Origin: Deltaproteobacteria bacterium
GTDB lineage: Bacteria > Desulfobacterota > Desulfobacteria > Desulfobacterales > C00003060
NCBI GenBank assembly: GCA_019307135.1
Contig: JAFDKF010000004.1
Coordinates: forward strand, 2,591 to 66,590
Reading direction: 5' to 3'
DNA length: 64,000 nt
Of this stretch, positions 14,405 to 49,637 are shown piece after piece; position 1 is the stretch's first letter; every line of letters begins with the position of its first letter. The notes below the pieces were generated by a model. It was not told where the DNA came from. It saw only the letters and a list, made by a program, of their open reading frames with translations, and did not search any database. Both the position numbers and the translations under genes were made by a program.

Positions 14405-15163
14405 ATGAACATCCTCCTTACCAATGACGACGGTATCCATGCCGAGGGCCTTTGGGCGTTGGAAAATGCCTTGTCCGGTGAACACCGGACCACGGTTGTT
14501 GCCCCTGACATGGAGCGAAGTGCCGTGGGGCATAGTATTACCCTGTTACATCCGTTAAGGGTCAACACGATTCAGACAAACGGAGGCCAAGGCTACGCAG
14601 TCAGCGGAACCCCGGCCGACTGTGTCAAACTTGGAGTTCTTGAGATCCTGGAAGCCCCGCCTGACATGGTAGTCTCAGGAATCAATCCAGGGCCTAATGT
14701 CGGAATCAATCTTAATTATTCCGGAACCGTATCAGCAGCCAAGGAAGCAGCCCTCATGGGAATCCCTGCCATAGCAGTTTCACAAAATCCCAATCCGGAT
14801 AATGAATACAACGTTGCAGCAAATTTTGTTAGCACCTTGATTGCCAGGATCATAAGAAACGGTCTTCCCCCGGGTACCTTCCTGAACGTGAATGTGCCGG
14901 CCTGCTCTCCAGATCAGATTAGGGGGGTTCGTATAACCCGACAAGGGATATCCCGCCTCAAGGAAATCTTTTACAGGAGAACCGATCCGAGAAAGCAAAC
15001 CTATTACTGGCAGGGGGCCGAAACCCAGTTTTTCGATCACGATCCGGATACAGACGGTGCGGTCCTTTGCACAAACTACATTTCCGTCACCCCCGTCCAA
15101 TGCGATATGACAGACTATCAAGCCATGGAACACCTCAAAACCTGGGATATTGGCCTGAAGTGA
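14405..15163 (+). CDS. surE: 5'/3'-nucleotidase SurE
   Basis: ILLTNDDG, GTPADCV, SGINPGPN, YSGTVSAA. Confidence 0.97.
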   Translation: MNILLTNDDGIHAEGLWALENALSGEHRTTVVAPDMERSAVGHSITLLHPLRVNTIQTNGGQGYAVSGTPADCVKLGVLEILEAPPDMVVSGINPGPNVGINLNYSGTVSAAKEAALMGIPAIAVSQNPNPDNEYNVAANFVSTLIARIIRNGLPPGTFLNVNVPACSPDQIRGVRITRQGISRLKEIFYRRTDPRKQTYYWQGAETQFFDHDPDTDGAVLCTNYISVTPVQCDMTDYQAMEHLKTWDIGLK

Positions 15164-15204: not shown

Positions 15205-16008
15205 CTACTTGTGAAGTTCAGAAAGGAAGCCCTGCATCCTCTGAAGAAGGGATTTCTTGATGTGAACCTTCAGGTAAAGGTCCCCAGGTTTTCCGCCCCC
15301 TTTTCCATCCTCGCCCATTCCCACAAGACGGATTCGTTGGCCTTCTCTGACTCGCGGCGGAATCTTGAGAACCAACTTCTTGGACTTTCTTCGGAAGAAG
15401 TAGGCAAATGGACCACCCTGCTGTGCTTGCTGGGGGCTCAGTTTAATGACATCGAGGATGTCTGAACCGTTTTCAGGCAACTCGATGCCGCCGATTTTTT
15501 CCAGAAAAAAGCGAGACAGCTTTCCCAGATGCCCTTGCAGCGGAAACTGCCATTGATCCTGTTCACGTTCTCCTGGATATCCAGCAAAAACAAACCCTTT
15601 GGCAAAAAAACCAGGCTTTTTGAATTCAAAGGCCCGGTATGCGTCCCCATAGAATTCCCGGAAAATATCTTCGTAACCCCTGAAGCCAAATACCTTGGCC
15701 ATTTTCTCGAGAATGTCGTTAATGTCTGAATCACGGAAAATATCCTCCTCAGAATAACTCCTTCTGAATTGGCTATAGGCCGAAGATCCAAACTGGTGTC
15801 TTAAGGCCTCGTATTGCCGTCTTTTGGCCGGATTTGAAAGAACAGCATAAGCTTCGTTAACGGCTTTCATTGTTTCGGAAGCTTCGGGATTTGCCTTGTT
15901 TCGATCAGGATGATATTTGAATGCAAGTCTCCGATAAGCCTGTTTGATCTGCTCCGCGCTGGCATGCGGTTCTACACCTAGAATTCGGCAATAATCTTCT
16001 TGATGCAT
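15205..16008 (-). CDS. DnaJ/CbpA-like J-domain protein
   Basis: J domain with YHPD; C-term KIPPRVREGQRIRL..G.G...GDLYL; no Zn finger. Confidence 0.9.
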   Translation of the reverse strand: MHQEDYCRILGVEPHASAEQIKQAYRRLAFKYHPDRNKANPEASETMKAVNEAYAVLSNPAKRRQYEALRHQFGSSAYSQFRRSYSEEDIFRDSDINDILEKMAKVFGFRGYEDIFREFYGDAYRAFEFKKPGFFAKGFVFAGYPGEREQDQWQFPLQGHLGKLSRFFLEKIGGIELPENGSDILDVIKLSPQQAQQGGPFAYFFRRKSKKLVLKIPPRVREGQRIRLVGMGEDGKGGGKPGDLYLKVHIKKSLLQRMQGFLSELHK

Positions 16009-16009
16009 T

Positions 16010-16198
16010 TTATTTTCTATCCTTTAACACAGGGTTGCTAGTGATCTTAGGAAAGACCCATGGGTCCTCAGGGTCCAATGTACCTTCTATGATCTCCCCT
16101 ATGGCGGCAGCGCAGTCAGTTTGCTGCTCTTTGCCACCAGAGCAGGTAATCGAGACAGTCCTCGCCTCGACGTCGATGCTGTCTATTGTGCAACCCAT
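16010..16198 (-). CDS. Small hypothetical protein (62 aa), coupled to the J-domain gene
   Basis: ATG 16198 with GAAAGGAAG upstream; stop 1 nt before the J-protein ATG; three Cys. Confidence 0.5.
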   Translation of the reverse strand: MGCTIDSIDVEARTVSITCSGGKEQQTDCAAAIGEIIEGTLDPEDPWVFPKITSNPVLKDRK

Positions 16199-16493
16199 TT
16201 TCTTCCTTTCTTCTGTTTGTAAGTCTTTGTGTCCCATACGTTTTCCGGAAACAAGTGGTTTCCGTTAAGCCGCATGTTCAGGCAGATAAACCCGGTAATC
16301 ACCCCTCAGGAGCCCAGCCACGTAATTGCAGCCAAAGGTGCGATGGGCAAGAACGGCTGTTTTGGGGAATCGCAGATAAGCCGACGGAGCGAAAGACGAG
16401 GTGTTAGCGCGAGGTAAACTCGTTCAAGTACTTGTTATTGTTGACTTGTGCTGATGTCGCTGTGTATGTTTCAAGTGTTGGCTCGCGTGCCTG

Positions 16494-16509
16494 TGCAATT
16501 TATATGCCA
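16494..16509 (-). promoter_or_regulatory. Sigma-54 (-24/-12) promoter
   Basis: Minus strand TGGCATATAAATTGCA, a near-consensus TGGCAY-N5-TTGCW. Confidence 0.7.
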
Positions 16510-16642
16510 TTTTACAGGGCCGATATAATACTGTCAAGTGAAATGTTGAGCTCCTGATGCAACGACTGTATGTGTTGTTGGCGTTTTCAATGAATGGAGA
16601 CTATAAGATCCCCCTTGAACTTGAGCCGGAAAGGGAAAGGGC

Positions 16643-16813
16643 CTGGACCGCAAGCTGGCGGCATTAGAAAAGAAATACGATGAGCAGTTCACAATTGTCT
16701 TTGACGCGATTCGTGAACTCATGACACCACCTGAAAAGCCAAGGAAAGGCATTGGTTTCGTCGTCAAGGAGCGCCGTGCGGCCTACGGCAAGCGTACAAA
16801 GGGCGGTAGATGA
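16643..16813 (+). pseudogene. 3' remnant of an ORF6N-domain protein (not in ORF track)
   Basis: Hand translation LDRKLAALEKKYDEQFTIVFDAIRELMTPPEKPRKGIGF...*; no start, N-terminal domain missing. Confidence 0.7.
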
Positions 16814-17114
16814 TCGCTGTTCCCTGCACGTAATCAAGCCCCTTTACAACTTCCACAGCAATTGGTACGTATCTTACAAGCGATGCAGTGTATATGTTTT
16901 AGGCGCAATGTCTTGCGGCATTACGGATAAGACATTGGTAAGACCTATCCAAGGGAAGGACAGAGGGTGGTCATGTCGTCAGTGACAAGGGGGGGGGCAA
17001 AAAGGTTGTAGAAAAAGGTGCTTACGCGGTGCGGGTAGATGATGAGGCGTAGCGGCATGCAGAAAATATCGTGCAAGACATTTTGAACAAATATGCAAAC
17101 AGGAGAGGAAGCTG

Positions 17115-17402
17115 ATGGCTGCAAACTCTGCTATTGAATGGACAGAAGCCACCTGGAACCCCGTCACGGGATGTACAAAGATCAGTCTTGGTTGCCAGAA
17201 CTGTTATGCTGAAAGGATGGCGCACCGTCCCAAAGCAAGGCCCATGTCCCCCTTATGGGCGAAAGGTGTCCGCGACCAGTGCCTTACTGCGGGGGTGCCT
17301 TTCTTCTTCAAGCAGTGGGAAGGATCAAACAATAAAAAAGCAGGCCGGGTATTAGATGGTCGAACGTGGGACGAGATGCCTGTGCTTGCAGAGACAGGGT
17401 GA
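17115..17402 (+). pseudogene. Gp37/Gp68 (DUF5131) gene with large in-frame internal deletion
   Basis: N-term [29 protein letters not shown] joined directly to C-term ARPM..W...RDQC...VPFFFKQW...[13 protein letters not shown]; central region absent. Confidence 0.88.
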
Positions 17403-17526
17403 GGAGTTGGGGTGTCCAAAGTTCATATGGGCAAATCAAAGACCAAGATATGAATTCGATTCGACCATCTCATTTGCCTTGGGGTTGCGATGTTGAAATA
17501 AGACGAATGTAGTTTCAGTAAAATGT

Positions 17527-17808
17527 ATGAAGGATGAACTCCTAAAACAGATCAAACCGCTGGCTGAGCAGTTACAAACACTGCAAGAACAAGCCGAGAG
17601 ACTTGGTATTTTTACTGGTGATCGGGAGTTGCTTGAATGCGCCGAATGCGGACTTGAAGAGGATGTCACAGCAGACGGTTTTTTGATTGTATGCAGAAAA
17701 CCAGTTCCCGGCACTGATACCGGCTTACGGTTTACCAAAGCTGTGGAAAACAAAGGAAAATACCTGTGTCCCGTTTGCGGGAAGCCAGCTCAATTTGGCG
17801 TCTCGTAA
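17527..17808 (+). CDS. Small Zn-ribbon hypothetical protein
   Basis: CAECG and CPVCG knuckles, 93 aa. Confidence 0.7.
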   Translation: MKDELLKQIKPLAEQLQTLQEQAERLGIFTGDRELLECAECGLEEDVTADGFLIVCRKPVPGTDTGLRFTKAVENKGKYLCPVCGKPAQFGVS

Positions 17809-17961
17809 CATATATTTTCATAGATACAGGATAACGTTCGTTGATGTATGCTAATCACAGATCAAGACTCGCTTTCCGCACCCGGTTCCGAGTGGCTTTT
17901 GTAAATGTGATTAATTTAACACTTTTGGATATGTGCAACTGAATGATAGGAGGTAAATGAT

Positions 17962-18243
17962 ATGGAGGATATTTTAACTATTCGTCTTCCGAACGAAATT
18001 AGCAAGATGCTCAATCGCACACCTGAAGAGATGTGCCGCGATATGCGCATTTATGCTGCGCTAATGCTTTTTCGTCTTGGCAAATTATCTTCAGGGGCTG
18101 CGGCATTAATGGCGGGCATCCCACGCGTGATGTTCCTTGACCTGTGTGCTGAGTATGACATTCCCATTTCACAAATTACACCGGAAGAGCTGCACCGAGA
18201 GGCCTTGCTCTTGGCCGGAGAAGAGGCAAGGGTTGGCATATAG
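17962..18243 (+). CDS. UPF0175-family putative antitoxin; tail possibly derived from a deleted DUF3368 toxin
   Basis: Strong AGGAGG RBS; LFRLGKLSSGAAALMAGIPRVMFL motif; ends ...REALLLAGEE. Confidence 0.8.
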   Translation: MEDILTIRLPNEISKMLNRTPEEMCRDMRIYAALMLFRLGKLSSGAAALMAGIPRVMFLDLCAEYDIPISQITPEELHREALLLAGEEARVGI

Positions 18244-18342
18244 CGGGAAAGGCCATGCGATTTGTAACTGACTAAGAGAGTGTCAGTACGTTTGATGTCT
18301 GTGTTGAAAGAACCAACCTGCTCGAAACACAATAGTGAGATT

Positions 18343-18411
18343 TAACAAGAAAAAGACGGGGCGTTTATGGATGGCAGAACGTGGGATGATATGCCTGTAG
18401 TTGCAGGTAAA
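18343..18411 (+). pseudogene. Second DUF5131 3'-end remnant
   Basis: AACAAGAAAAAGACGGGGCGT...GATGGCAGAACGTGGGATGATATGCCTGT (NKKKTGR..DGRTWDDMP) matches 17328-17390. Confidence 0.8.
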
Positions 18412-18585
18412 GAGAGAATCGGGTTTTCCCTGTTCACATGCGGAAATCGCGGATCAAAATGAAAGCCGGTTTTGTCATAGAATAGAATAAAGGATTACTA
18501 ATTTGACAGATAGGGCTGAAAAATGTCAAGATAGTCAAATGGTTAGATGGTTTGCGCAATCTTCCCTTTGCCCGGAGGTGCATTG

Positions 18586-18966
18586 ATGATTGACATTGAT
18601 AAACAGATCAGTTTTTGGCGCAACAGTGCTGAGGAGGATTTGGCCGTGGCACGTGATCTCGTTGACCGGAACCGTATACGGCACGGTTTATTTTTTGCCC
18701 ACCTCGCGTTGGAGAAGGCATTGAAAGCACATGTCTGCTGCGTAACGCAAGATATTGCACCCCGATTACACAACCTGGTTCGCTTGGCCGAGTTGGCAGA
18801 ACTCGATATACAACCCGCCCAGATGGATATTCTAGCGGAAATGAACTCCTTCAACATTGAAGGCCGCTATCCTGATACATTATCGCCGCCCCCATCTCAG
18901 GAGGAAGCCCAGCACTATATGACCCAAGGAGAAGAGGTATTTCAATGGTTGATCAGTATGTTTTGA
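18586..18966 (+). CDS. HEPN domain protein
   Basis: GGAGGTG RBS; AEEDL..A, FFAHLALEKALKA, PRLHNL, RYP. Confidence 0.9.
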   Translation: MIDIDKQISFWRNSAEEDLAVARDLVDRNRIRHGLFFAHLALEKALKAHVCCVTQDIAPRLHNLVRLAELAELDIQPAQMDILAEMNSFNIEGRYPDTLSPPPSQEEAQHYMTQGEEVFQWLISMF

Positions 18967-19280
18967 AAAGCGTGCGAAACTATTTGAAGGCTGTCCGAAC
19001 GGAGGGAATTGCCGTCCGATTTGGGATTATTTTCGGCTCTCATGCTACCGGCCGATCGGACCGTTGGAGTGACATTGACGTTCTCGTAGTATCTCCCCGT
19101 TTTGATGCCCCGCGGAACCGGCGGGATATAGACCTGCTTTGGCGTTTGGCAGCGAAATCGGACAGCCGGATCGAGCCAATCCCTTGCGGGGAACGCCAAT
19201 GGGAAGAGGACTCATCAAGCGCTATCGTGGAAATTGCCCGGCGCGAGGGTGAGACGATCAGCCTTGGTGAAGCTGAGTAA
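18945..19280 (+). CDS. Minimal nucleotidyltransferase (MNT)
   Basis: IFGSHATG....WSDIDV (GS-x10-DxD); overlaps the HEPN gene. Confidence 0.9.
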   Translation: MVDQYVLKSVRNYLKAVRTEGIAVRFGIIFGSHATGRSDRWSDIDVLVVSPRFDAPRNRRDIDLLWRLAAKSDSRIEPIPCGERQWEEDSSSAIVEIARREGETISLGEAE

Positions 19281-19349
19281 GAATCCCTGAGCACGACGTC
19301 ATCGGAAATCAGCAAAATACCAACAATTATCCAAACGGAGAGCGTCATC

Positions 19350-19468
19350 AATGATCAGCATTTAGGTGTTGAGGCCCATCTTCTTCAAGCAATGGAGAGG
19401 ATTGAACAAGAAAAAAGCAGGCCGGGTATTGGGCACGTGGGACGATATGCCTGTTGTTGCGGGGATAG
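19350..19468 (+). pseudogene. Third DUF5131 3'-end remnant
   Basis: TTCTTCAAGCAATGG...AACAAGAAAAAAGCAGGCCGGGTATT...ACGTGGGACGATATGCCTGT, close match to 17304-17390. Confidence 0.85.
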
Positions 19469-19663
19469 AGAGAGTTAGAGGCGTATCTTGACATGTGCTA
19501 ATCACAGATCAAGGCATGACCCCAAATCGTCGTCAATTGCCTTAGTTAGATGGTGTTGAAAAGCCGAGTGATAATCCATAGTTGGTATGCGCTAGGCAAA
19601 AAAGGATGGATGATACATCGTTTCTTGAAAAAGATAATGAAGCTCCATCAATTCAATTAAGGA

Positions 19664-19694
19664 TTGACAAATGGATAAAGATTTCTTATATAAT
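19664..19694 (+). promoter_or_regulatory. Sigma-70-like promoter for the Xre-ImmA gene
   Basis: TTGACA at 19664; TATATA 17 nt later, overlapping TATAAT 19 nt later; AT-rich context. Confidence 0.5.
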
Positions 19695-19745
19695 TGTCGA
19701 TATGATTAATAATAATATAAGAAATCATTATTGAAGGGGTATGTC

Positions 19746-20942
19746 ATGATATCCAAAGGACACGAAAGTGAAGCGGCAGCGCTCAAGGAAGAAAAGGTCC
19801 TGGATAAAAGGATTATGGCTGCGAGACAGGCAGCAGGTTTTTCCATTACCGAAGCGGCTCAAAAACTGGGGTTTAAAAACTATCAGACTCTTTCTGCCAT
19901 TGAAAAAGGTGCAAGGAACATAAATGCCCATGAATTAATTATGATGGCTCGTTTATATGGCAGAAATCTGGACTATTTCTTGGAATCCGACGTTGCCCCC
20001 GATCCTGTGCCCTTGTGGAGACACGAAGTGAAGCCTGCGCTCAAGGCAAGAAAAACAGACGTAAATCAAATACAGCGCCAATTCCTTTCTTTTCTGGAAA
20101 ATTACAGTAACCTGGAACACCTGCTTGGGCTCAAGCGACGATGGAAAGATATTCAGAAAAATTATGATAGGGATGATTTTTCCGTAAACGGCTTTGAGCA
20201 GGCCGATAAACTTGGCGCTGATATTCACAATTTCCTCGACTTAGGTTCTCGTCCTTCCTTGAATCTGCTTAATGTACTCGAAAATAAACTTCGTTTCAAA
20301 ATCCTTCATTTGTCTTTGGGGGATGGTGTCTCCGGCGCCAGCGTTGTGGACAACATCTTAGGGGTTGGCATACTCATCAACGCGAAGGATGCTCCATGGA
20401 GAAGAAATTTTGATCTGGCACATGAATTATTTCATGTCATAACCTGGAATGTTTTTTCTCCCGAAGAGATTGGTAACGGTACAACAAAAACCAGGCCGGA
20501 ACAATATGCGGACATCTTTGCTTCAAGTCTGCTCTTACCTGAAGCTCATCTCCTCAATGCACTCAAAGAAACAGCTACCGACAATGAAATCAGAGTCATT
20601 GATATCATTGAGCTGGCCAAGGAGTTCGGTGTCTCAACGGAAGCAGTCCTTTGGCGACTTGTCAACCTGAAGAAACTTAAGAAATCCCAAGCGCAAAGGG
20701 TCTTGGATAACCCGAAATTCCGTGATCTTGATCGCAGTATGCGTCGAAGGTTGTATAGCGGAGACAGGCTGTCCAAATTTCCTTCAAGATTTATATCTCT
20801 TGCATGCAGATGCTTGATGAAAGGCAAGATATCAAGAGGCACTTTCGCCGAATATCTGGAAATAGATCGGGCTGAAATAGACGACTATCTGGACGCAGCA
20901 GGATTTGTGGAAGGAAACTATGCGAAAATTGCTGCTGCTTGA
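19746..20942 (+). CDS. Xre HTH + ImmA/IrrE Zn-metallopeptidase
   Basis: HTH (RIMAARQAAGFSITEAAQKLG..TLSAIEKG); RRNFDLAHELFH (HExxH); EQYADIFASSLLLP; FGVS. Confidence 0.92.
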   Translation: MISKGHESEAAALKEEKVLDKRIMAARQAAGFSITEAAQKLGFKNYQTLSAIEKGARNINAHELIMMARLYGRNLDYFLESDVAPDPVPLWRHEVKPALKARKTDVNQIQRQFLSFLENYSNLEHLLGLKRRWKDIQKNYDRDDFSVNGFEQADKLGADIHNFLDLGSRPSLNLLNVLENKLRFKILHLSLGDGVSGASVVDNILGVGILINAKDAPWRRNFDLAHELFHVITWNVFSPEEIGNGTTKTRPEQYADIFASSLLLPEAHLLNALKETATDNEIRVIDIIELAKEFGVSTEAVLWRLVNLKKLKKSQAQRVLDNPKFRDLDRSMRRRLYSGDRLSKFPSRFISLACRCLMKGKISRGTFAEYLEIDRAEIDDYLDAAGFVEGNYAKIAAA

Positions 20943-21379
20943 CGCAAATAAGCAAAGCTTATAATATTTGTCTAACCCGGAATGTTTTTGAGGAAGCAGG
21001 ATATTACAAAAAGGACGGGGCAAAAATAGATATTGACATTAAAGATGTCACGATAATTGAAAATGTTGATCTTGAAAGTTTGAGAAAGGTGCAAAGGGAA
21101 GCAAAAGAGGCGAGATTAGGAATAGACCCCGGAGAGTCCACATCAATAGCCTATTTAATCCAAACCGAAGAAGAAATAACCTTTTGCTCTTGCGACCAGG
21201 CTGCCATAAAGCTCGTCTCTTATATGGAACTTGAACAAAAATCAATCAGCCTGCAAAGAGCCTTTAGGGACATTGGATATCATAAGAGAAATTTGTATCC
21301 GAGACATCTTGAGAAGACTTTCAAGGCAGCCGTTAATGAAGGAAAAACGCTGAGAATTCAATTTAAAAAGCTGGTATAG
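20920..21379 (+). pseudogene. PIN-domain partner protein, frameshifted near the 5' end
   Basis: AAGGA + ATG 20920 gives MRKLLLLDAN (PIN strand 1), then stops; body (VFEEA, IDPGESTSI, CSCDQAA) is in the +1 frame. Confidence 0.7.
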
Positions 21380-21455
21380 TTTTGATATAAAAATCATGGT
21401 TGGCTTTTTAAATTATGGATGATCCAGGAAAAAAGAATTTGAGGCTTGCGATTAA

Positions 21456-22067
21456 ATGGCTGGCATTCGATTCGTCAAGAAAAGTGCGAGGGAAAAGGCA
21501 ATCCGGTTTTGCGCACGTTCTGCACGAACGTCCCGGTCAGGTCCCCAACATGATTATGTTGCTGATTTAATAACTAAAATTCAATCAAGGACTGTTCCGT
21601 TATCACAATGTATGGCTGAGGCATATAGACTGGCCAAAAGCAAAAAAATAACTTCCCTTGAAGAATTCTGCGCTGGCGAGCTTACTGGCTGGTATGGTGA
21701 CAGATTAAAAAACTATTATCCAAAATATCGTCTTGCCCAGGTTTATGCAGGGATAAATCGACAGATTAATATGCAATATTTTGGTTGGGACGGAACTTCT
21801 TCCAATGTAATGGATTTTATTAAAAGGGATACGGATAATTTCAAGCCAACAAAACTATTGTTTGCACAGCCTTTGTCTGAACTTGAAGCAAAAATTCCTT
21901 CTGATTTATCAAACAAAATAATATCATTAACAATGCGAGCGTGTGATTTTATACCAGACACTGAAAATCCCAATATCCCAATATACGTTTATGCTAGTAC
22001 CCAAGCTTATGTTAATATTTTAGAAGGGATTAGAAATGAACTTACAATTCGCTTAATGGATCTTTAA
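21456..22067 (+). CDS. AbiTii-like domain protein, probably 5'-truncated
   Basis: LSQCMAEAYRLAK....LEEFCAGELTGW...PKYR resembles the AbiTii pattern; low GC; first ~30 codons look non-native. Confidence 0.5.
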   Translation: MAGIRFVKKSAREKAIRFCARSARTSRSGPQHDYVADLITKIQSRTVPLSQCMAEAYRLAKSKKITSLEEFCAGELTGWYGDRLKNYYPKYRLAQVYAGINRQINMQYFGWDGTSSNVMDFIKRDTDNFKPTKLLFAQPLSELEAKIPSDLSNKIISLTMRACDFIPDTENPNIPIYVYASTQAYVNILEGIRNELTIRLMDL

Positions 22068-22148
22068 CCATTTACCGCATCAACTCCGACAAACAATAGC
22101 CGCGTGTTTCCCACGGTTATTGTTTGCGGATTATGCTCGGCGTTGTAC
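22062..22148 (+). mobile_element. Degenerate integron attC-like site
   Basis: CTTTAAC overlapping the upstream stop codon; imperfect stem GCATCAACTCCGACAAACAATAGCCG / CGGTTATTGTTTGCGGATTATGC with unpaired bases; ends GGC-GTTGTAC. Confidence 0.55.
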
Positions 22149-22187
22149 CCACCGCCCCGTTGGGTCATTTACTATTGGAATTTCATA

Positions 22188-22691
22188 ATGAACACAATAT
22201 CGATTGCTATGATATCATTTGTCGGGTCTTCAATAATCTTTGTACTTGCGTGTCTGATAGTACGTTGCGCGCGTTTTCCCACTGGTAACGACTCCGAGCC
22301 AGATTCACTTCATGGCAATCGTCCGGAACGGATAGCAAACATCAGAGATCAGACCGAGCGTGTACATAAAGCGTTTGAATTCTATTTGAAGGTCACTCTC
22401 GCAATTTTAGGCGGTATTGCGTATCTGGTCTCATCAGCGAAGAATGGGCAGTCCGAGGCTACTGCGGAGTTACTCGTAGCGGCTGGATGGTTCGAATTAA
22501 TGATTGGTACAGCTTTTTCTGTGATAGTATTTCTTCATATGAAATCAAAAATTGCTCGGTGGAGCCGAAGATATTCTTGGTGGGAACCATTTTTGTGGAT
22601 GGAGTGCTGGTTTGTTGCCGTAATGATGACAATAGCTGTTTCTTTGCCTGCTGCAGTCATACCCGCAATAGTCATTGTACTTCCCAGTTGA
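22188..22691 (+). CDS. Hypothetical membrane protein (~4 TM)
   Basis: Four hydrophobic segments; ATG 40 nt after the attC-like site. Confidence 0.65.
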   Translation: MNTISIAMISFVGSSIIFVLACLIVRCARFPTGNDSEPDSLHGNRPERIANIRDQTERVHKAFEFYLKVTLAILGGIAYLVSSAKNGQSEATAELLVAAGWFELMIGTAFSVIVFLHMKSKIARWSRRYSWWEPFLWMECWFVAVMMTIAVSLPAAVIPAIVIVLPS

Positions 22692-22709
22692 CAGTGGATC
22701 GAGAGAAGG

Positions 22710-22876
22710 GGGGCGCATCTTAATTATTAACTATTCGTTTCTTGTTTTAGAGGTGAACCGGTCGCTGAGAAACCCAAAAGACGACTGAGAAACAACACGT
22801 TGGCTGGATAATTAACCTGGATAATAATGTCAATAATTAATAATTAAGATGTTAAGATGCGACCCTGGGCTTTCCC
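22710..22876. mobile_element. AT-rich MITE-like element, copy 1
   Basis: Ends GGGCGCATCTTAATTATTAA / TTAATAATTAAGATG(..)CGACCC; near-identical to 24765-24916. Confidence 0.85.
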
Positions 22877-22891
22877 CCCGTTCGGGAGTAG

Positions 22892-23193
22892 GGAGTAGAG
22901 GCGACCATGTCTGAATTGAAGCGAAGGCACGGCATGGGCAAGCTGCGTGTACGTAGATCAACCAAAGTGTGTTTTGCGATAGCCTGTAAAGTGATCGCCT
23001 GCAATATAAAGCGCTGGGCGAAAGCCCTTGCGGCCTCTGGCACAGATTTACAACGCCTCATATGGTTCATTTTACGCCGTTTAGGGGTGCTCGAGATCAA
23101 TCTCAACAAAATATGCTTTGGAACGTTGATGAACGGAACCGGTCAATTCTGATTCATTTTTTCGCAAAAAAAGGGGACTTATTTTTCAGGAAT
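22892..23193 (+). pseudogene. 3' remnant of a DDE transposase (IS1182/IS5-like)
   Basis: GVEATMSELKRRHGMGKLRVR...IACNIKR matches the DDE C-terminal signature; no N-terminal part. Confidence 0.7.
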
Positions 23194-23346
23194 CCAAAAC
23201 TAAATGGCGTCCCCTTGGACACACGTTGCGACTGTGAGCAGGACTACGAGATTGTATGGGTGGAAATTGAACGACGCTTCGAGACCACGATGCGCACGAA
23301 AGACACGAAATAATAAGTCGATTTCGTGGTTTAGCAGAGATTAAGA

Positions 23347-24735
23347 ATGGACATTTTTGAAATCCTCAAAAAAGGCGAATCGGAAACCGTTGAATTCAAA
23401 GAACGATTCAACAAGGAAACCATCATTTCCTTGGTGGCATTTGCCAACACAAAGGGCGGCAAGATTATTGTAGGTGCGGATAGAAAAGGGCGCGTTACCG
23501 GTATCAAGGCAGGCCGGGAGACAGCGCAGCGTTATTTAAATGAAATTAAGGTTGCTACCTATCCTCAAATTCTGCCCAATGTTGATGAATATGAAATACA
23601 AGGGAAAACCGTCCTGGTATTTGAGATAAAAGAGTATCCCGTAAAACCAATATGTTTTAAGAACCGTTATTACAAAAGGGTTAAGAACAGCAATCACCTG
23701 CTTACCCTGGATGAAATCGTGGATCTGCAGCAGCAGAGTTTGAATATTTCCTATGATGCCTATCCGTTGAAAGAAAACCTGTCCTCACTGGATACCGCCT
23801 TGCTGGAAAAATTTGTTGAAACAATAAACTCAAGAGGCCGGATAAACCTTCAGGATGATCTGCTGACCAATTTGACAAAGCTGAAATTAATCCAGGCGGG
23901 CAAGCCGACATTGGCTGGCATGCTGCTATTCGGAAACCATGGCTTTTCCATCCATATTGGGAGGTTCAAATCAGAAGATACGATTATTGATGATCTGTTG
24001 ATAAAAGATCCTCTGCTAGTCGCTCTGGATGAAGCCATGATCTTTATCAAGAAACATATCAGCCTTTCCTACCGATTTGACGGAAGCCTTAAACGGAAAG
24101 AATCGTGGCAGTACCCGCTGGAGGCCATTCGTGAATTGCTCTTAAATTCTGTTGTTCACCGTGATTATAAGCATTCATCGGATATCGTCATCAAAGTATT
24201 TGACGATAGGATTGTCTTCACCAATCCGGGCAGAATCTACGGCAACCTGACCATTAAAGATCTTGAACGGGATGATTACGTGTCGTCCATCCGAAATAAA
24301 CTGCTTGCCGAATCGTTCTACCTTATGGGAGATATTGAAAAATACGGGACAGGATTCATCAGGATTCGAAAATTGATAGAAGATTACCCGGGGGTCTCTT
24401 ACAGCATAAGTGAGACGGGTGATTTCTTTAAGGTGGAGATGCGCCATACCCCCACAAAACCCCTCCTAATACCAAAAACGGATCTGCCTGAAAAACTGCC
24501 TGAAAACTTGCCTGAAAAACTGCCTGTAATTCAGAGACAGATAATCGAAAATATGTTGAAGAACCCTAAAATTACATATAATGAACTTGCCGACATTACG
24601 GGAAAAACCAGAGAAACGATAAGGGTTCATATCAATAAGCTAAAGGAAATGAATTTAATCAAAAGGATCGGCCCGGATAAGGGCGGCTACTGGGAAATCC
24701 TTGGCCCACAGTCCACGAAACACACTAAAGAGTAA
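23347..24735 (+). CDS. Schlafen AlbA_2 + HATPase_c_4 + wHTH protein
   Basis: GESETVEFK, AFANTKGG, RELLLNSVVHRDY, RNKLLA, IEKYGTG, RIGPDKGGYW; LPEK/LPEN linker repeats. Confidence 0.9.
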   Translation: MDIFEILKKGESETVEFKERFNKETIISLVAFANTKGGKIIVGADRKGRVTGIKAGRETAQRYLNEIKVATYPQILPNVDEYEIQGKTVLVFEIKEYPVKPICFKNRYYKRVKNSNHLLTLDEIVDLQQQSLNISYDAYPLKENLSSLDTALLEKFVETINSRGRINLQDDLLTNLTKLKLIQAGKPTLAGMLLFGNHGFSIHIGRFKSEDTIIDDLLIKDPLLVALDEAMIFIKKHISLSYRFDGSLKRKESWQYPLEAIRELLLNSVVHRDYKHSSDIVIKVFDDRIVFTNPGRIYGNLTIKDLERDDYVSSIRNKLLAESFYLMGDIEKYGTGFIRIRKLIEDYPGVSYSISETGDFFKVEMRHTPTKPLLIPKTDLPEKLPENLPEKLPVIQRQIIENMLKNPKITYNELADITGKTRETIRVHINKLKEMNLIKRIGPDKGGYWEILGPQSTKHTKE

Positions 24736-24764
24736 GCCATAGAAAGAGGGAGAAGAGAGGGAGA

Positions 24765-24916
24765 ATCTTAATTATTAACTATTCGTTTCGTGTTTTAGAG
24801 ATGAACCGGTCGCTGAGAAACCCAAAAGACGACTGAGAAACAACACGTTGGCTGGATAATTAACCTGGATAATAATGTCAATAATTAATAATTAAGATGC
24901 GCCCCCGGGCTTTCCC
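24765..24916. mobile_element. AT-rich MITE-like element, copy 2 (direct orientation)
   Basis: Near-identical to 22717-22876. Confidence 0.85.
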
Positions 24917-25054
24917 GCATAAGAGCTATTTGCGCTGCGCGGTTACGGCTAGGACATCATATCGATACGGGGGATTGCGGATAGTTACCGAGACTGAGAC
25001 ACACGTCATTGTCTGCAACTACGTCCTGACACGTGGCTGGAGGAGGTGAATCGG

Positions 25055-27629
25055 ATGGCAGGGAAAAAGAAGGCGGGCAAGAAACCGATTGAGCAATACG
25101 ACCACAAGGGAAAGAAGCGGGTCAATAATCCGCCGGTTGGTCTGGTGACGCCTGATACGGATAAGGAAACGGGAAAAAAAGGATATGCTTATGACCCGCA
25201 TATTGACCCGAGCCTGCAATGGGCGGGCAAGGCCGAGCATACATCTTTTGACGTGCCTAATGTATCCCTTCATGTCCACGAGCGCATAGACCCCCGTACC
25301 ATTATCGAGGCGGTGCGCAAAAGAAACGGACAAAAGTACGATCAACTTTCTCTATTTGCCCAAGCCGATGAAAACCCACCCTTAAGAGAAGCCATTGAGT
25401 TCTACAAGCACAAGCACAACTGGTCAAACCGCCTTGTGGCTGGCGACAGCCTTCTTGTAATGAACTCCCTCCTGGAAAAGGAAGGCATGGGCGGCAAGGT
25501 GCAGATGATTTACATGGACCCGCCATATGGCATCAAGTATGGCAGTAACTTCCAGCCCTTTGTGAACAAACGGGATGTAAAAGACGGAAAGGACGAAGAT
25601 TTGACTGCCGAACCGGAGATGATTAAGGCCTTCCGTGATACGTGGGAACTCGGGATTCATTCGTATTTGACCTATCTGCGGGACAGGCTGCTGCTGGCAA
25701 GGGAACTGTTGAGTGAAAGTGGGAGTATCTTTGTGCAGATTTCGGATGAGAATGTTCATCATGTAAGGGAGTTGATGGACGAGGTGTTTGGGAACAAGAA
25801 TTTCGTCAATGAAATCATATTCCTTAAGACTACTGGCCAAACGAGTAAGTTGCTGCCACCAGCAAATGACTATTTGATATGGTATGCCAAGGATGGTGAT
25901 TGTGTAAAGTATCGCCAACTGTTTGGAGCAAGGGATCAAGACTACATTGACGCTGCATACAACTATTTAGAACTCCATAACGGTGAGGTTAAGAAGTTAA
26001 GCAAAACCGAGGTAAGAAATGAAGAAGTCCTGCTTCAGGGTCGGAGATTCAGAATAGACAATCTTACTTCTCAGTCTGGTCCTGGCGATGTGCCTGAAAC
26101 TAGATTCATTTGGAACAAAAAAACCTACAGATTGAAAACCGGTTCATGGAAAACCTCGATATCTGGATTGAAAAACCTAGCCAAAGCAAATAGGCTATGG
26201 TTTCTGGAGCACACCGTATACTACAAAAGATACGTTGATGATTTTCCCATACAACCCATGAACAATGTCTGGCACGATACGACAATTAGCGGATATGCCT
26301 CAGAAAAAATGTATGTTGTTCAAACCCTCACAAAAGTTATTGAACGATGCCTCCTAATGACCACCGACCCCGGCGATCTCGTCCTCGACCCCACCTGCGG
26401 TTCCGGTACCACAGCCTACGTGGCCGAGCAGTGGGGCAGGCGGTGGATAACCTGCGATACATCACGGGTGGCCCTTGCCTTGGCCAAACAACGGCTAATG
26501 ACCGCACTGTATGATTACTATGAGCTTGCCCATCCCGCAGAAGGCGTGGGTAGCGGTTTCAAATACAAGACCGTGCCCCATATTACCCTGAAGTCCATTG
26601 CCAACAATGAACCGCCCGCACAAGAAACCCTTTATGACCAGCCCTATATAGACAAATCCCGGGCAAGGGTCTCCGGACCCTTTACTGTGGAGGCAGTGCC
26701 TGCGCCTGTTGTAAGACCTCTGGAGGATATAAGTGCATACAGTGGATACGACACTCCCTGCAGATGAGTCTGTTGCTCGCAGCGGCGAGACGTTGCGCCA
26801 CGGGGAGTGGCGGGATGAGCTGCTCAAGACCGGCATTAGGGGTAAGAGAGGCCAGTTTATACTCTTTTCAAGGGTCGAGCCTTTGCCTGGAACCCGCTGG
26901 GTCCATGCCGAGGCGGAAACAAGACCGAATGATCTGGGAGCTGATTCTGTCCAGGAACCACAGGGAATATACGCCCAACCGGTCCGGGCGGTTATCTCTT
27001 TCGGCTCGGAACATGCACCGTTGGAACAGCGGCAGGTGGAATTGGCCATCGAGGAGGCACAGAAGCTGGTTCCCAGACCCAAAATCATTGTTTTTGCAGC
27101 ATTCCAGTTTGATCCCGAGGCCGCAAAAGATATTGACGAGACCGACTGGCCGGGCGTCACGCTTCTCAAGGCCCAGATGGATGATGACCTTCTGACTGAA
27201 GACCTGAAAAAGAAACGGAAAAGCAACCAGAGCTTCTGGCTCGTAGGCCAACCCGATGTGAGGATTGAAGAGATCAAGAAAGGCAAGGACAAGGGCAAAT
27301 ATCGCGTGGAAGTCCTGGGTTTTGACTACTGGAACACCAAGACCGGCGTCATTGAATCGGGTGGGACGGATAAGATTAGCATCTGGATGCTGGATACCGA
27401 CTATGATGGCAGGAGCCTTTTCCCGAAACAGGTGTTTTTCCCCATGTCCGGCCAAAAGGACGGCTGGTCGCGCCTGGCAAAAAATCTGAAGGCGGAGATC
27501 GACGAGGAACTTATTGAAGCCTATCGAGGAACGGTTTCGTTGCCGTTTGAAATCGGTGAGAACAAGCGCATCGCAGTCAAGATCGTGGATGATAGGGGCA
27601 TAGAAAGCCTCAAAATAGAGGAGGTTTAA
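25055..27629 (+). pseudogene. mod: Type III R-M methyltransferase (Mod), split by a frameshift at ~26733-26765
   Basis: GDSL, YMDPPYG, DPTCGSGTT in ORF 25055-26767; continuation PADESVARSGE...IAVKIVDDRGIE in +1 frame to 27629. Confidence 0.85.
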
Positions 27630-27631
27630 TA

Positions 27632-27937
27632 ATGGACCAAACTAATATTATAATACCAAAAGAAGAAATCGTCAGGTTTTGTAAAAGAAATCATATTGTA
27701 AAACTCTCAATTTTTGGCTCTGCCTTGCAAAAAGACTTCGGCCCTGACAGCGATATTGATCTGCTTGTTGAATTTGATCCTGATCGTATCCCCGGTCTTA
27801 TCCGGCTAGCCGGTATGGAAATTGAGATGGCTGAAATCATTGGGCGCAAAGTGGATATCAGGACCCCTCAGGATTTGAGTCCTTACTTCAGAAACGAGAT
27901 CCTTGACACCGCAGAGGTGCAATATGCAGAAGGGTAA
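27632..27937 (+). CDS. MNT antitoxin (MntA-like)
   Basis: IFGSALQKDFGPDSDIDLLVEF, GRKVD. Confidence 0.92.
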   Translation: MDQTNIIIPKEEIVRFCKRNHIVKLSIFGSALQKDFGPDSDIDLLVEFDPDRIPGLIRLAGMEIEMAEIIGRKVDIRTPQDLSPYFRNEILDTAEVQYAEG

Positions 27938-28259
27938 TTTTATTCTGTTGCGTCATATGCTTGATGCTGCCAGAGAAGCAGTATCTTTTGTCGCAAACAA
28001 CACAAGACATTCTTTAAACACAGACCGCAAACTTGAGCTTGCTCTTATAAAGTGCATTGAAATCGTTGGAGAAGCTGCGTCTAAGGTAAGTACTGATTAT
28101 CGTGAAAATACGTCTCAAGTCCCATGGGCCAATATTATCTCTATGAGAAATCGTCTGATACACGGGTATTTTGACATCGATCTTGACATTCTCTGGCAAA
28201 CCGTAGTTGAAGACCCCCCGCCCCTGATTGCGGAACTTGAGAAAATCATAGAGGTATAA
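27924..28259 (+). CDS. HepT/DUF86 HEPN RNase toxin
   Basis: EIVGEAA, PW..I..MRNRLIHGY (RX4HXY); ATG 27924. Confidence 0.92.
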   Translation: MQKGNFILLRHMLDAAREAVSFVANNTRHSLNTDRKLELALIKCIEIVGEAASKVSTDYRENTSQVPWANIISMRNRLIHGYFDIDLDILWQTVVEDPPPLIAELEKIIEV

Positions 28260-31063
28260 TGGTGGCAAAATCAACAATTGATCAGCTCATCATCAATTCT
28301 CCCTACGAAGAGCCAAAGCATTACTGGAGCTATGACAGGGAGACACGGTTGTTTGCGCTCAAAGAGGGGAGGCGTCCGGCGGGCTATGTGGTTGCTTCAG
28401 ATGGATCAAAGGCATTTGATGATCCCGGTGTTTTTGTTGAAATACCCCTGGTAAACCAGATCAGGACCCGCGTCGATGCGTGGCGTGAAAACGGATATGC
28501 GGGAGTTACGGGGATTACTAAACGATTATTAGAGCATTGGAAGAATCCCGAGGAACGGGAATATCGCCGGTTCTTTTTTTGCCAGTTGGAGGCCATTGAG
28601 ACGCTCATCTGGCTCACCGAAGCGTCGGATGCGGAGAAGGTGGGCATAGATATTCCCTTGGATGGAGGGCCGTTTAAGCGGCTTTGTTCCAAGATGGCAA
28701 CCGGCTCCGGCAAGACGATTGTAATGGCCATGCTGATTTCCTGGCAGGTATTGAACAAGGTCACTTATCCTCAGGATGCAAGGTTTTCAAAATATGTTTT
28801 CGTTGTGGCACCGGGTCTTACGGTGAAAAGCCGTCTTCAAGTGTTGATGCCTTCCGGTCGTGAAAACTACTATGACGAGTTCAATGTCGTACCAGTTGGG
28901 CTCAAGGAAAAACTGCGCCAGGGTAAAATCCTCATCCGTAACTGGCACGCCCTTCAATGGGAGAGCGAAGAAAAGATCGCCAAAAAGAAGAGCGTGGATA
29001 AAAGGGGTGTGAAGAGTAACGAGGCATATGTCCATGAAGTCTTAGGCGAGATGGCGAAGGCAAATAACATTGTTGTGATCAATGATGAAGCCCACCATGC
29101 GTGGCGCGTGCCTGCCGAGTCAAAGGTAAAAGGGCTAAAAAAGGCAGAATTAGAAGAAGCGACCATATGGGTGAACGGACTGGATCGAATCCATGAGGCG
29201 AGAAACATATTAAGCTGCCACGATTTTTCAGCCACCCCATTCGCACCATCGGGCAAGAAGAGTTCTGAAGAGGCCCTTTTCGTATGGATTATTAGCGATT
29301 TCGGGTTGAATGACGCCATAGAGTCAGGTCTCGTAAAGACCCCGCGAGTAGTCATCCGTGATGATGGTAAACTGACCAAGGAGTATAAGTCCCGTCTTTA
29401 CCATATTTACAATGACCCTGAAGTCAAAGACGATATTAACCGGAAAGCAGAACCGCACGAACCCATGCCCGATCTGGTAACCAATGGGTATTATCTTTTG
29501 GGGAAGGACTGGCTGGAAACAGCCAAAGCCTGGGAAGATGCTGGATTCAAGACCCCTCCGGTTATGATTTCTGTGGCGAACCGGACCGAGACTGCCGCAC
29601 GCGTAAAATATGCCTTTGATCATAAAAAGATCCGTATTGATGAGTTGTGCATCCCCGAAAAAATCCTCCATATTGATTCCAAGGTCCTTGAGTTGGCCGA
29701 ATCCCAGGAAGAGGCAGTTTCCTTTGATGATGCTGCTCAGGGGGATGGATCGGAAAAGGGGCAAACCCGTAGGTTATCGAAAAAGGAACTTGCAGAATCT
29801 CTCCGCAAAACCGTTGACACCGTCGGCCAGGCCGGGAAACAGGGGGCATCAGTACAGAAAGTGATCTCTGTGGGTATGCTTTCCGAGGGATGGGACGCAA
29901 AGACCGTGACGCATATAATGGGACTTCGCGCCTTCTCCAGCCAATTGCTGTGTGAACAGGTGGTTGGCCGGGGTCTGAGGAGGACCTCTTACGAAGTCAA
30001 TTCGGAAACAGGCCTTTTTGAAGCCGAGTATGTCAATATCTTTGGGGTGCCGTTTACTTTCCTGCCGCACGAATCCAAGGACGGTCCTCCGCCGCCTCCA
30101 CCAGAACCAAAAACACGCATTGAACCGGTCATTGAGAAAAGCCAATTCGAAATAAGCTGGCCAAATGTCATTCGCATCGAACATGTATTCAAACCGGTGC
30201 TGAAGCTCGATATGAATAGAGTCCCACCCCTGGAGTTATCGGCCTATGATACTGCAACCCTGGCAGAGCTTGCTCCCATGGTGGAAGGAAAGCCCGATGT
30301 GACCCGGATCTCTACTATTGACCTGGAGGATCTGGGACGAAAATTCAGGATGCAGAAGATCATCTTTGAAACGGCAAGAGATGTCTTTGATCAAATGAAA
30401 CCCGGTTGGAAAGCAAGCAAGGAGTATTTGCTGGCCCAGTTGATACGGCTGGTAGAGGCGTTTATTGCATCTGATAGGATTCAAATAGTACCGCCGCTTT
30501 TTTATCAGGATGACATTAAACGTCGCATTCTCTTGACGCTTAACATGAACAAAGTGGTCCAGCACATCTGGGAAGCCATTCGTTTTGAGAATTCAGAATC
30601 CATTGAACCTATATTTGACAGAGACTTTCCTATTCGTTCTACTGAGGATATGCAGGCGTGGTATACGGGAAGACCCTGTGAACACACCCGGAAATCTCAT
30701 ATCAACATGTGTGTTTTTGACAGTACCTGGGAGGCCAGTGAAGCCTTTGAATTGGATCACAACCGCCATGTTGAGGCATGGGTAAAAAATGACCACCTTG
30801 GCTTTGAAATTCTTTATGTCTTTGGAGGAGTAGTCAGAAAATATCGACCGGATTTCATTATCCGGCTCAAGACCGCCGATCTTCTCATTCTGGAAACTAA
30901 AGGACAGGACACTCAGCGCGATAAGACAAAACGCAGGTTCTTGGATGAATGGGTGAGGGCTGTCAATGAACATGGCGGTTTTGGAAAGTGGGAATGGGCA
31001 GTATCCAAGAACCCTGCGGATGTAAAAATGATCATCGAGGATGCGGTCCGGAGTCGTTGCTGA
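28259..31063 (+). CDS. res: Type III restriction endonuclease (Res)
   Basis: MATGSGKT, NDEAHH, SATP, MLSEGWD, EQVVGRGLRR; C-term YRPDF...LETKG nuclease. Confidence 0.93.
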   Translation: MVAKSTIDQLIINSPYEEPKHYWSYDRETRLFALKEGRRPAGYVVASDGSKAFDDPGVFVEIPLVNQIRTRVDAWRENGYAGVTGITKRLLEHWKNPEEREYRRFFFCQLEAIETLIWLTEASDAEKVGIDIPLDGGPFKRLCSKMATGSGKTIVMAMLISWQVLNKVTYPQDARFSKYVFVVAPGLTVKSRLQVLMPSGRENYYDEFNVVPVGLKEKLRQGKILIRNWHALQWESEEKIAKKKSVDKRGVKSNEAYVHEVLGEMAKANNIVVINDEAHHAWRVPAESKVKGLKKAELEEATIWVNGLDRIHEARNILSCHDFSATPFAPSGKKSSEEALFVWIISDFGLNDAIESGLVKTPRVVIRDDGKLTKEYKSRLYHIYNDPEVKDDINRKAEPHEPMPDLVTNGYYLLGKDWLETAKAWEDAGFKTPPVMISVANRTETAARVKYAFDHKKIRIDELCIPEKILHIDSKVLELAESQEEAVSFDDAAQGDGSEKGQTRRLSKKELAESLRKTVDTVGQAGKQGASVQKVISVGMLSEGWDAKTVTHIMGLRAFSSQLLCEQVVGRGLRRTSYEVNSETGLFEAEYVNIFGVPFTFLPHESKDGPPPPPPEPKTRIEPVIEKSQFEISWPNVIRIEHVFKPVLKLDMNRVPPLELSAYDTATLAELAPMVEGKPDVTRISTIDLEDLGRKFRMQKIIFETARDVFDQMKPGWKASKEYLLAQLIRLVEAFIASDRIQIVPPLFYQDDIKRRILLTLNMNKVVQHIWEAIRFENSESIEPIFDRDFPIRSTEDMQAWYTGRPCEHTRKSHINMCVFDSTWEASEAFELDHNRHVEAWVKNDHLGFEILYVFGGVVRKYRPDFIIRLKTADLLILETKGQDTQRDKTKRRFLDEWVRAVNEHGGFGKWEWAVSKNPADVKMIIEDAVRSRC

Positions 31064-31089
31064 GGGGCTGATAGGAACCTTCAGGGACG

Positions 31090-31192
31090 TTAGGGGAACG
31101 CCTTTTAGTTTTCCAGTTTCTAAGTAATCCTTTTAGAGCCGGTTCATGATGGCAAGGAAGTCGCAAGAAAGTCGAAGATAGATGAAGATTGT
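31090..31192. repeat. ~100-bp dispersed repeat
   Basis: CAGTTTCTAAGTAATCCTTTTAGAGCCGGTTCATGA...GCAAGAAAGTCGAAGATAGA recurs at 54947-55025 and 55272-55352. Confidence 0.85.
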
Positions 31193-31285
31193 GAGCAATG
31201 ATGAAAGTATGTACGAGGCACGGAGGGAAATATTGGGGACGCTCTTTGGTTTTACAGGAAAGAACAGGGGAAAACATGCGGCCGC

Positions 31286-31330
31286 GTCTACACTCTTGAC
31301 AACGACTTCTTATCTGTCAAGAGTGTAGAC
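31286..31330. repeat. Perfect 16-bp inverted repeat
   Basis: GTCTACACTCTTGACA-N13-TGTCAAGAGTGTAGAC. Confidence 0.9.
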
Positions 31331-49585: not shown

Positions 49586-49637
49586 TAGAATTCTACGGCA
49601 AACCCGACGCTTGCTACATCTTTTTTTTGTATCAATT

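Follow-up and report, generated by a model that had tools for sequence, protein, structure and literature searches.

Truncated DUF5131 gene ends at cassette boundaries in a defence island of an uncultured Desulfobacterales bacterium

Defence islands turn over fast, and the addition of cassettes to them without mobility genes is mostly inferred. How an island may come to grow in this way is the question raised by a locus of an uncultured sulfate-reducer from marine sediment, in which the 3' end of a gene of the DUF5131 family recurs along a series of cargo cassettes. The locus lies in a stretch of 64,000 nucleotides (nt) that was analyzed as a whole (assembly GCA_019307135.1, contig JAFDKF010000004.1, positions 2,591 to 66,590) and is referred to here as the window. 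An earlier reading of this DNA, the original prediction, held that the repeated gene end is a recombination anchor through which toxin-antitoxin (TA) modules are stacked. The genome holding the window, G000, is a metagenome-assembled genome (MAG) of 314 contigs that is 96.7% complete with 4.6% contamination, and all genomes compared with it are likewise MAGs, including those of the genus set of 37 genomes to which G000 belongs. In what follows G0xx denotes genomes of the genus, C a contig, L a locus, and X a metagenome run; the public runs in which parts of the region occur are metagenomes from cold seeps and marine sediment.

A repeated gene end and dyad in the window

A DNA profile for nhmmer was built from five full-length DUF5131 genes of relatives and searched against the window, where it matched three diverged copies of the DUF5131 3' end, roughly as originally placed. 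Judged by these alignments, the match of the three copies to the DUF5131 gene is far above chance. Each copy forms part of a longer unit, by which we mean the DUF5131 3' end, the C-terminal tail that follows it, and an intergenic 26-nt dyad element (the dyad), all on the forward strand. Unit 1 (17227-17516; E 4e-47) consists of the 3' end, the tail and a diverged dyad, and is the variant linked to the first cargo gene, a CxxC open reading frame (ORF) termed the Zn ribbon. Unit 2 (18335-18471; E 9.4e-18) consists of a short DUF5131 remnant and a dyad variant, and unit 3 (19346-19578; E 4.5e-27) of a remnant starting at about 19374, a tail and a dyad of the main type. No further unit was found in the window by nhmmer. 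Pairwise, the units fall into three repeat families, D1 (17364-17402, 18379-18417 and 19435-19473; identity 77-87%), D2 (17335-17402 and 18350-18417; 71%) and D3 (17297-17353 and 19374-19430; 86%). Units of the window share exact matches of up to 20 nt. The corresponding maximum in other arrays is 11-29 nt, apart from two cases with 50 and 73 nt.

Unit 1 contains the 3' end of a 95-amino-acid (aa) ORF on the forward strand (17115-17402; PF07505 E 4.7e-32, PDC-M41B E 1.8e-37). This ORF matches PF07505 in two stretches, with profile positions 1-37 joined to 186-243 and positions 38-185 missing, such that an N-terminal part with three Cys residues is fused to the last ~58 profile positions; it is therefore an internally deleted, PDC-M41B-like gene and not an intact one. 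All five PF07505 matches in G000 are fragments, and the partner gene of the PDC-M41 pair, TcmP, gave no tblastn match in G000 at E 0.01. The pair, which by definition requires both genes at full length, is thus dead in G000, where the B gene is reduced to 95 aa and no A gene is present.

The 18-mer previously reported at 17849 and 19496 is an exact repeat (17849-17866 and 19496-19513) and proved to be the core of the dyad. The dyad lies 15-20 nt past each of the three gene-end copies, in its diverged form at 17422-17447 and 18432-18457 and in its main form at 19488-19513. It also occurs alone on the forward strand (D5b, 17841-17866), where the CxxC ORF is separated by it from a UPF0175 gene and no DUF5131 remnant precedes it, and a lone dyad is likewise found after the Zn-ribbon homologue in L057 (1627-1652). 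The repeat is thus not restricted to a gene end, as had been supposed, but also takes in the tail and intergenic dyad, to which the first codons of a mod gene are added in some relatives. The remnant ORFs end at or before the dyad, and the cargo ORFs begin 80-220 nt later in frames of their own.

Shared cassettes, mosaic units and the mod junction

That the repeated gene end bounds exchangeable modules, as originally proposed, is borne out by comparison with G042. Contig C83 of this genome holds an intact pair in which TcmP (TIGR04474 E 3.9e-57; PDC-M41A E 1.4e-74) overlaps a 246-aa DUF5131 gene (PDC-M41B E 8.8e-122), followed in order by a unit, a Schlafen-type ATPase gene, a unit, a HEPN-MNT pair, a unit, a Lamassu-like trio (LmuA, a 187-aa ORF and LmuB) and the same mod gene that is found at window position 25046. 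The block at 18339-19528 of the window is 94.5% identical to G042:C83 over 1197 nt and comprises the right part of unit 2, the third cargo (18547-19280, forward strand), and unit 3 with its dyad, while the neighbours in G042 differ on both sides. This cargo consists of a HEPN gene (18547-18966; PF05168 E 1.9e-17) and an MNT nucleotidyltransferase gene (18945-19280; PF01909 E 1.3e-7), and the right half of unit 2, common to G042, is linked to it. The unit 1 variant and its cargo recur in G047 (L057) and in G000:C250: window 17289-17808, which covers unit 1 and the CxxC ORF, is 89% identical over 521 nt to G047:C180, where a ParE-HTH_17 pair lies upstream, and 17277-17573 is 90% identical to G000:C250. 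In G008:C8, surE, which forms part of the left flank of the island in the window (14405-15163), is followed directly by a unit, another HEPN-MNT pair, a unit, a type IIG methylase gene, and the window's MNT-HepT-res block; this is the chromosomal site of the window with other content. In the metagenome locus L114 surE also adjoins a unit. As is characteristic of conserved-flank hotspots, the cargo found behind DUF5131 differs, from HEPN-MNT to Lamassu, and mobility genes are absent.

Units are present in 10 of the 37 genomes of the genus, G000 included, and within G000 they lie on four further contigs: C250, which has three, C211, C216 and C32. The units of C250 are surrounded by SNF2/SWIM, DUF4062-ATPase, YhcG-nuclease fragment, XPB-helicase and RadC-N genes. 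Arrays were found in four relatives, with three units in G042:C83, two each in G008:C8, G015:C100 and G012:C330, and a spacing of ~1-2.3 kb; contigs from the Joint Genome Institute (JGI) carry two (L091) and three units (L074). An exact-pattern scan returned 42 stretches from a metagenome collection and 11 stretches on 8 contigs from a public genome collection, all 8 labelled as Desulfobacterales, Desulfobacteraceae, Deltaproteobacteria or Thermodesulfobacteriota MAGs. The cargo near units in ~50 environmental loci includes HEPN/MNT pairs, AAA_21-RloB, OLD-type ATPase, YhcG nuclease, Schlafen, PIN, DUF5615/DUF433, Vsr, Fic, RadC, HNH and MerR genes, type I methylase pieces, and a radical-SAM pair. 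The cargo is therefore not specific to TA systems, contrary to the original prediction, since relatives carry Lamassu, Schlafen-type ATPases, OLD/AAA_21-RloB, type IIG genes, and pieces of type I restriction-modification (R-M) systems. A two-gene module composed of a 326-aa ORF without family and a radical-SAM gene is recurrent (L115 2215-3889; L107 295-1960) and sits directly behind a unit or DUF5131. The C211 copy is an isolated 52-nt unit fragment (~9177-9233, or L007 5187-5237; nhmmer E 5e-8) flanked by HSP20 and ArsA genes, in housekeeping surroundings that contain no nearby defence cargo.

Alignment of all copies revealed a conserved coding block, strongest around the codons for GRTWDDMP, followed by a C-terminal tail and dyad that occur in ~5 variants, each of which goes with particular downstream cargo. 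The left boundary of a unit goes with the upstream cargo instead: left ends are ragged, starting at profile positions 251-682 by nhmmer, yet a given upstream cargo has one left end across genomes, as illustrated by G000 and G042, which have the same join behind MNT. The main variant begins with TTGACA and its right boundary falls no more than ~20 nt after the dyad in nine contexts, while in the variant on full-length genes the conserved block extends ~100 nt past the dyad. When the 44 units with both halves were clustered, 16 left and 26 right clusters occurred in 32 combinations, and both main left forms were paired with right clusters R4 and R11, so that all four combinations occur. The units are recombinant mosaics. 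Relative to their G042 counterparts, the switch point of unit 2 lies just before the tail and that of unit 3 ~50 nt further left; exchanges would therefore have taken place at varying points in the conserved block and not at one fixed core.

The right flank of the site is a type III mod gene or its 5' remnant in L051, L059, L067, L110 and L115. Full-length DUF5131 genes without a dyad are found in L067, L110 and L115, where a GGAG-ATG lies ~25-50 nt past the stop codon and the gene begun by that ATG matches type III mod over its first 37-104 codons (PADLOC MTase_III E 2.2e-38 for the 104-aa piece, and E 3.7e-233 for the full 689-aa gene of G008:C140). None of these is an empty TcmP-DUF5131-mod site, since mod is cut after ~37 codons in L067 and L115, where other cargo follows, and stops after 104 codons in L110. 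In L054, L109, L114, L078, L094, L111 and G000:C32, tblastn placed 5' mod remnants directly before short DUF5131 remnants, joins that are head-to-tail, from the start of the right flank to the end of the left. Retention of a mod start in the units of the window was considered and rejected, as their alignments to the 5' region of the G008:C140 mod gene were no better than those of shuffled sequences (52-243 of 300 shuffles scored at least as high).

Recombination at a hotspot and its rivals

Taken together, these features suggest that recombination has acted repeatedly at one insertion hotspot, and they do not suggest a novel type of mobile element. We propose, with what we consider an even chance of being right, that it is a defence-island hotspot downstream of DUF5131 whose scars, the truncated gene ends, serve as portable homology for recombination. 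The hotspot would be the short junction behind the DUF5131 gene of the TcmP-DUF5131 pair (PDC-M41), with type III mod next in relatives, and lineages would differ in the defence or TA cargo that they hold at this DUF5131/mod junction. New cargo that settles beside resident cargo would bring with it a truncated junction made up of the last 25-60 DUF5131 codons, the tail and the dyad. Stacking of this kind would need homologous exchange in the conserved coding block or the right flank. It would also require, in the beginning at any rate, a join that is illegitimate or unequal, after which a shortened end of the left flank remains and sometimes the start of the right flank as well. The scars would then provide short portable homology, through which cassettes could be exchanged, lost and re-assorted by general recombination after DNA uptake, and a recombinase encoded by the element would be unnecessary. 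Short, diverged scars alone would persist, since cargo lying between long direct repeats would be lost by deletion, and the exact identity of no more than 20 nt between window units fits such a survivorship. From these comparisons we infer RecA-type recombination with occasional illegitimate joins as the mechanism.

Several points weigh against this proposal. Recombination is deduced here from the comparison of MAGs and was not itself observed, and homologous recombination by itself can explain neither how the first stacked copy arose nor why left ends are ragged, which makes it necessary to assume illegitimate joins. The anchor role given to the gene end in the original prediction therefore stands insofar as units are recombinant between their left and right halves, but the part played by homologous recombination is a deduction and does not account for the left ends. 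RecA-type exchange would be inefficient where units match exactly over no more than 20 nt, such lengths being near or below the minimum that efficient RecA exchange needs. A full-length mod gene directly behind DUF5131 was seen in no examined locus, and local alignments against shuffles did not show mod-derived sequence after the dyad in the window units. The 81 nhmmer matches include ~65 truncated and 8 full-length DUF5131 genes, an excess of remnants that is inflated by retrieval of the environmental loci with a 19-21-mer lying inside the remnant and by duplicate copies, several loci being copies of one element; six loci that overlapped others on the same contig (L063, L064, L070-L072 and L092) had been dropped before the search. 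The joins from 18243 to 18343, between the UPF0175 gene and unit 2, and from 19528 to 19731, between unit 3 and the Xre-ImmA gene of the fourth cargo, are known from the window alone. Finally, the dyad has a 10-11/5-6/10-11 layout like that of a recombinase core site, with 85% of cells paired, and therefore leaves room for an unlinked recombinase.

The layout of the dyad leads to a different account, an integron- or island-like site-specific system in which the unit or the dyad is an attachment site and a recombinase encoded elsewhere moves integrase-less cassettes as circles, each with its own copy of the site. In keeping with this, direct repeats bracket every cassette in a single orientation, the dyad stands alone at two cassette boundaries (the lone copies in the window and L057 described above), the right boundary of the main variant keeps close to the dyad, and G000 encodes unlinked tyrosine recombinases. 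These amount to 14 PF00589 matches, spread over 12 contigs that are all free of units, and there was no match to the serine recombinase family PF00239 in G000. A recombinase gene was found in none of the ~60 loci examined: in a scan around units that totalled ~330 ORFs, no integrase, resolvase or transposase family was detected among the 58 ORFs of the window, in agreement with the original prediction, nor among 18 ORFs of C250, 23 of other loci of the same genome, 95 of relatives, and 150 of the ~50 environmental loci. The array thus has the direct repeat of a gene 3' end at every boundary that island accretion would leave, but neither the dedicated integrase nor the fixed crossover core, and no IntI lies next to it as an integron would require. 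The ragged left ends, the at least two different switch intervals, and the conserved block that runs on past the dyad in the variant on full-length genes also speak against a fixed site. The dyad is no better paired than expected, at 84.7% versus 84.0 ± 0.9% in shuffled alignments, with 135 of 500 shuffles at least as high, and the units folded no better than shuffles in five of six cases (z -0.93 to +0.85, and -2.33 in the remaining one). No attC-type RYYYAAC...GTTRRRY pairing was seen on reading the unit alignment, to which no dedicated attC model was applied. A role of the dyad as an RNA or structured element was rejected on the same folding and covariation results, the sole Rfam match in 16000-25500 at up to E = 1 being an irrelevant one to an unrelated sRNA model at 23290-23352. 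We consider site-specific movement of this kind unlikely. The narrower version, in which the DUF5131-mod junction (~100-150 nt, with the dyad) is the true attachment site and cassettes are captured and released as circles by a trans-acting recombinase, or conceivably by TcmP/DUF5131 itself, appears improbable.

The units could instead be kept for their service to the cargo, as promoter, ribosome-binding region or transcript-end signal, with recombination being incidental. The tail and dyad variant does co-segregate with downstream cargo, the TTGACA at the start of the main variant would suit a promoter, and the native junction carries the GGAG ribosome-binding site and the ATG of mod. However, 11 promoter-like sites were counted versus 8.3 ± 3.1 in shuffles, one weak site among them overlapping a unit, there were no terminator-like sites at units, and no Rfam family was assigned to them, while the distance from dyad to cargo start is variable within its 80-220 nt. 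A promoter or terminator role was rejected on these counts, and we regard the wider idea of units retained for the cargo's benefit as quite improbable. Very improbable, in our estimation, is an origin of the array in assembly, by a chimeric path through strains sharing the unit, or in plain decay that left the remnants as random debris. The number of contigs and the contamination of G000 would allow an artefact, and the highest share of sampled words of 16800-21500 in any of 24 public runs was 0.42; low word shares and uncovered parts of 16000-22500 in four runs are uninformative either way. Logan contigs are short and break at units, so that none spans the region, and the two joins seen in the window alone belong on the same side. 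Against this, arrays occur independently in five species-level genomes and in the JGI contigs L091 and L074, and several junctions are bridged outside the window: record 10 of run X10 (1433 nt) extends unbroken over 17298-18202, record 4 of run X1 reaches from 17751 to 18348, and G042 contiguously reproduces the unit, HEPN-MNT and unit of 18339-19528. Random loss, moreover, would not place remnants exactly at gene-content breakpoints. The cassette order of the window itself is accordingly only partly supported by independent data and not fully verified.

Cargo, island context and relation to known systems

The cargo of the window, all on the forward strand, begins with the 93-aa CxxC...CxxC ORF behind unit 1 (17527-17808), whose zinc-finger match is sub-threshold (E 0.004). 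It is followed by the second cargo, a gene of the UPF0175 antitoxin family (17962-18243; PF03683 E 1.1e-18) that lacks a toxin partner and is probably the remnant of a truncated pair. The fourth cargo, behind unit 3, consists of an RmrA-like Xre-ImmA fusion (19731-20942; HTH_3 3e-12, Peptidase_M78 1e-15, PADLOC RmrA E 4e-22) and a 146-aa ORF that overlaps it (20939-21379). This ORF has no Pfam, NCBIfam or PADLOC match and is possibly PIN-like, the sole support for PIN being a weak language-model lead to PIN/DUF3368 clusters. Pfam therefore upholds the UPF0175, HEPN-MNT and Xre-ImmA genes named in the original prediction, while the Zn ribbon falls short of threshold and the PIN gene lacks a family match. 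Across four metagenome runs, contig depth summed over the cassette of Xre-ImmA and the 146-aa ORF (19689-21424) was mostly several-fold to more than 100-fold that over HEPN-MNT, which suggests that this cassette is present in many more genomes of those communities. The excess was smaller in bins 20557-20773 and 20991-21207, where it fell to less than 2-fold in run X2. Logan joints from 19507 and 19534 to 21513 (X10, X2) that would skip Xre-ImmA were left unused, their sides being 24-26 letters long and the intervening letters unknown, and joints from 19416 to 18368 (X3, X10) were rejected as circle junctions, since the conserved block there is closer in sequence to copy 2 than to copy 3, a situation also found in G042.

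The defence island to which the array belongs measures ~16 kb and lies between surE and a DnaJ-like gene (15205-16008) on the left and a SPOR-domain gene (32336-33277) on the right. Just upstream of the deleted DUF5131 gene is the C-terminal remnant of an ORF6N-family gene (16637-16795, forward strand), which tblastn matched to amino acids 126-178 of the L056 ORF6N protein with 58% identity (E 4e-15). In L056 and L109 an intact ORF6N gene lies immediately before a unit, and the DUF5131 remnants there start at profile position ~553, as does the 3' part of the deleted gene of the window. The remainder of the island (21456-32271) is on the forward strand and without units. It consists of AbiTii (21456-22067), a 195-aa membrane ORF, a Schlafen/AlbA2 ATPase gene (23347-24735), type III mod in two ORFs (25046-27629), a first MNT-HepT copy (27632-28259), a type III res-like gene (28259-31063), and a second MNT-HepT copy (31627-32254). 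The mod gene is split into overlapping ORFs at 25046-26767 (PADLOC MTase_III positions 77-586) and 26733-27629 (763-980), and its true start is probably upstream, near 24975. The two MNT-HepT copies belong to a direct repeat of ~870 nt with 94.4% identity (27418-28276 and 31400-32271) that flanks the res-like gene, in the block shared with G008:C8. A second R-M and defence cluster at 48413-58890 holds an N6_N4 methylase gene, an Eco57I-like 1060-aa gene, SIR2, a D12 methylase fragment, and an N6_N4 fragment.

In its varied cargo between conserved flanks without mobility genes, the array resembles the minimal mobile elements of Neisseria, the P2/P4 hotspots and the core defence hotspots of P. 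aeruginosa, where exchange is thought, in the portions of the sources consulted, to proceed by homologous recombination in the flanks (PMC3082526, PMC9122126, PMC10250203); TA islets are described in the consulted part of a further source as able to integrate through homologous recombination at flanking core genes (PMC13617665). Unlike in those hotspots, cargo is here stacked and not merely replaced, and with every cassette that is added a truncated copy of the end of the left flank gene stays behind, at times along with the start of the right one, so that the flank homology is multiplied within the island. Boundary repeats of a target 3' end are shared with the tandem islands at ssrA in Dehalococcoides, fda in streptococci, and, for the staphylococcal cassette chromosome (SCC), rlmH, such arrays at gene 3' ends being the subject of the consulted parts of three reports (PMC3146451, PMC5704250, PMC7563491). 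In those islands the crossover core is fixed and a dedicated integrase is encoded within the array or beside it, whereas here no integrase is linked, left ends are ragged, and switch points vary. Integrative and conjugative, integrative mobilizable and cis-mobilizable elements (CIMEs) accrete at fda, and SCC at rlmH, and recombinase-less CIMEs and pseudo-SCC occur in such arrays. Each displaced orphan toxin-immunity module behind rhs and cdiA is headed by a conserved piece of the main gene, through which it can recombine with that gene; the piece is in frame with the orphan toxin tip, so that recombination swaps the toxin domain. The likeness to these modules that was originally drawn holds in logic but not in anatomy, as the remnant here is not in frame with, or fused to, the start of a cargo ORF and the cargo is unrelated to DUF5131. 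Chromosomal integron arrays (clusters of attC sites lacking integron-integrases) are similar in their ~1-kb cassettes of one orientation, richness in TA genes and lineage-specific repeat of 100-150 nt, but in our array no IntI is linked and the repeat is a gene end without attC-type structure. The anchor gene itself belongs to a pair listed by PADLOC as a candidate system, PDC-M41/PDC-M30 (TcmP TIGR04474 with DUF5131 PF07505), whose junction and not its function is of interest here. Judging by title and abstract, none of the papers found on DUF5131, TcmP and PDC-M41/M30 describes arrays of DUF5131 remnants.

The locus links a candidate PDC-M41 pair to a type III R-M context and is a readable record of cassette addition. 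Were the attachment-site reading true, uncultured Desulfobacterales would possess a platform for gene capture that resembles an integron but is based on a gene end. If instead the scars act as portable homology, as in the hotspot that we propose, islands can grow by stacking and not by replacement alone, and repeated gene-end remnants at content breakpoints would, if this is true, provide a signature for finding hotspots and unannotated cargo in metagenomes.

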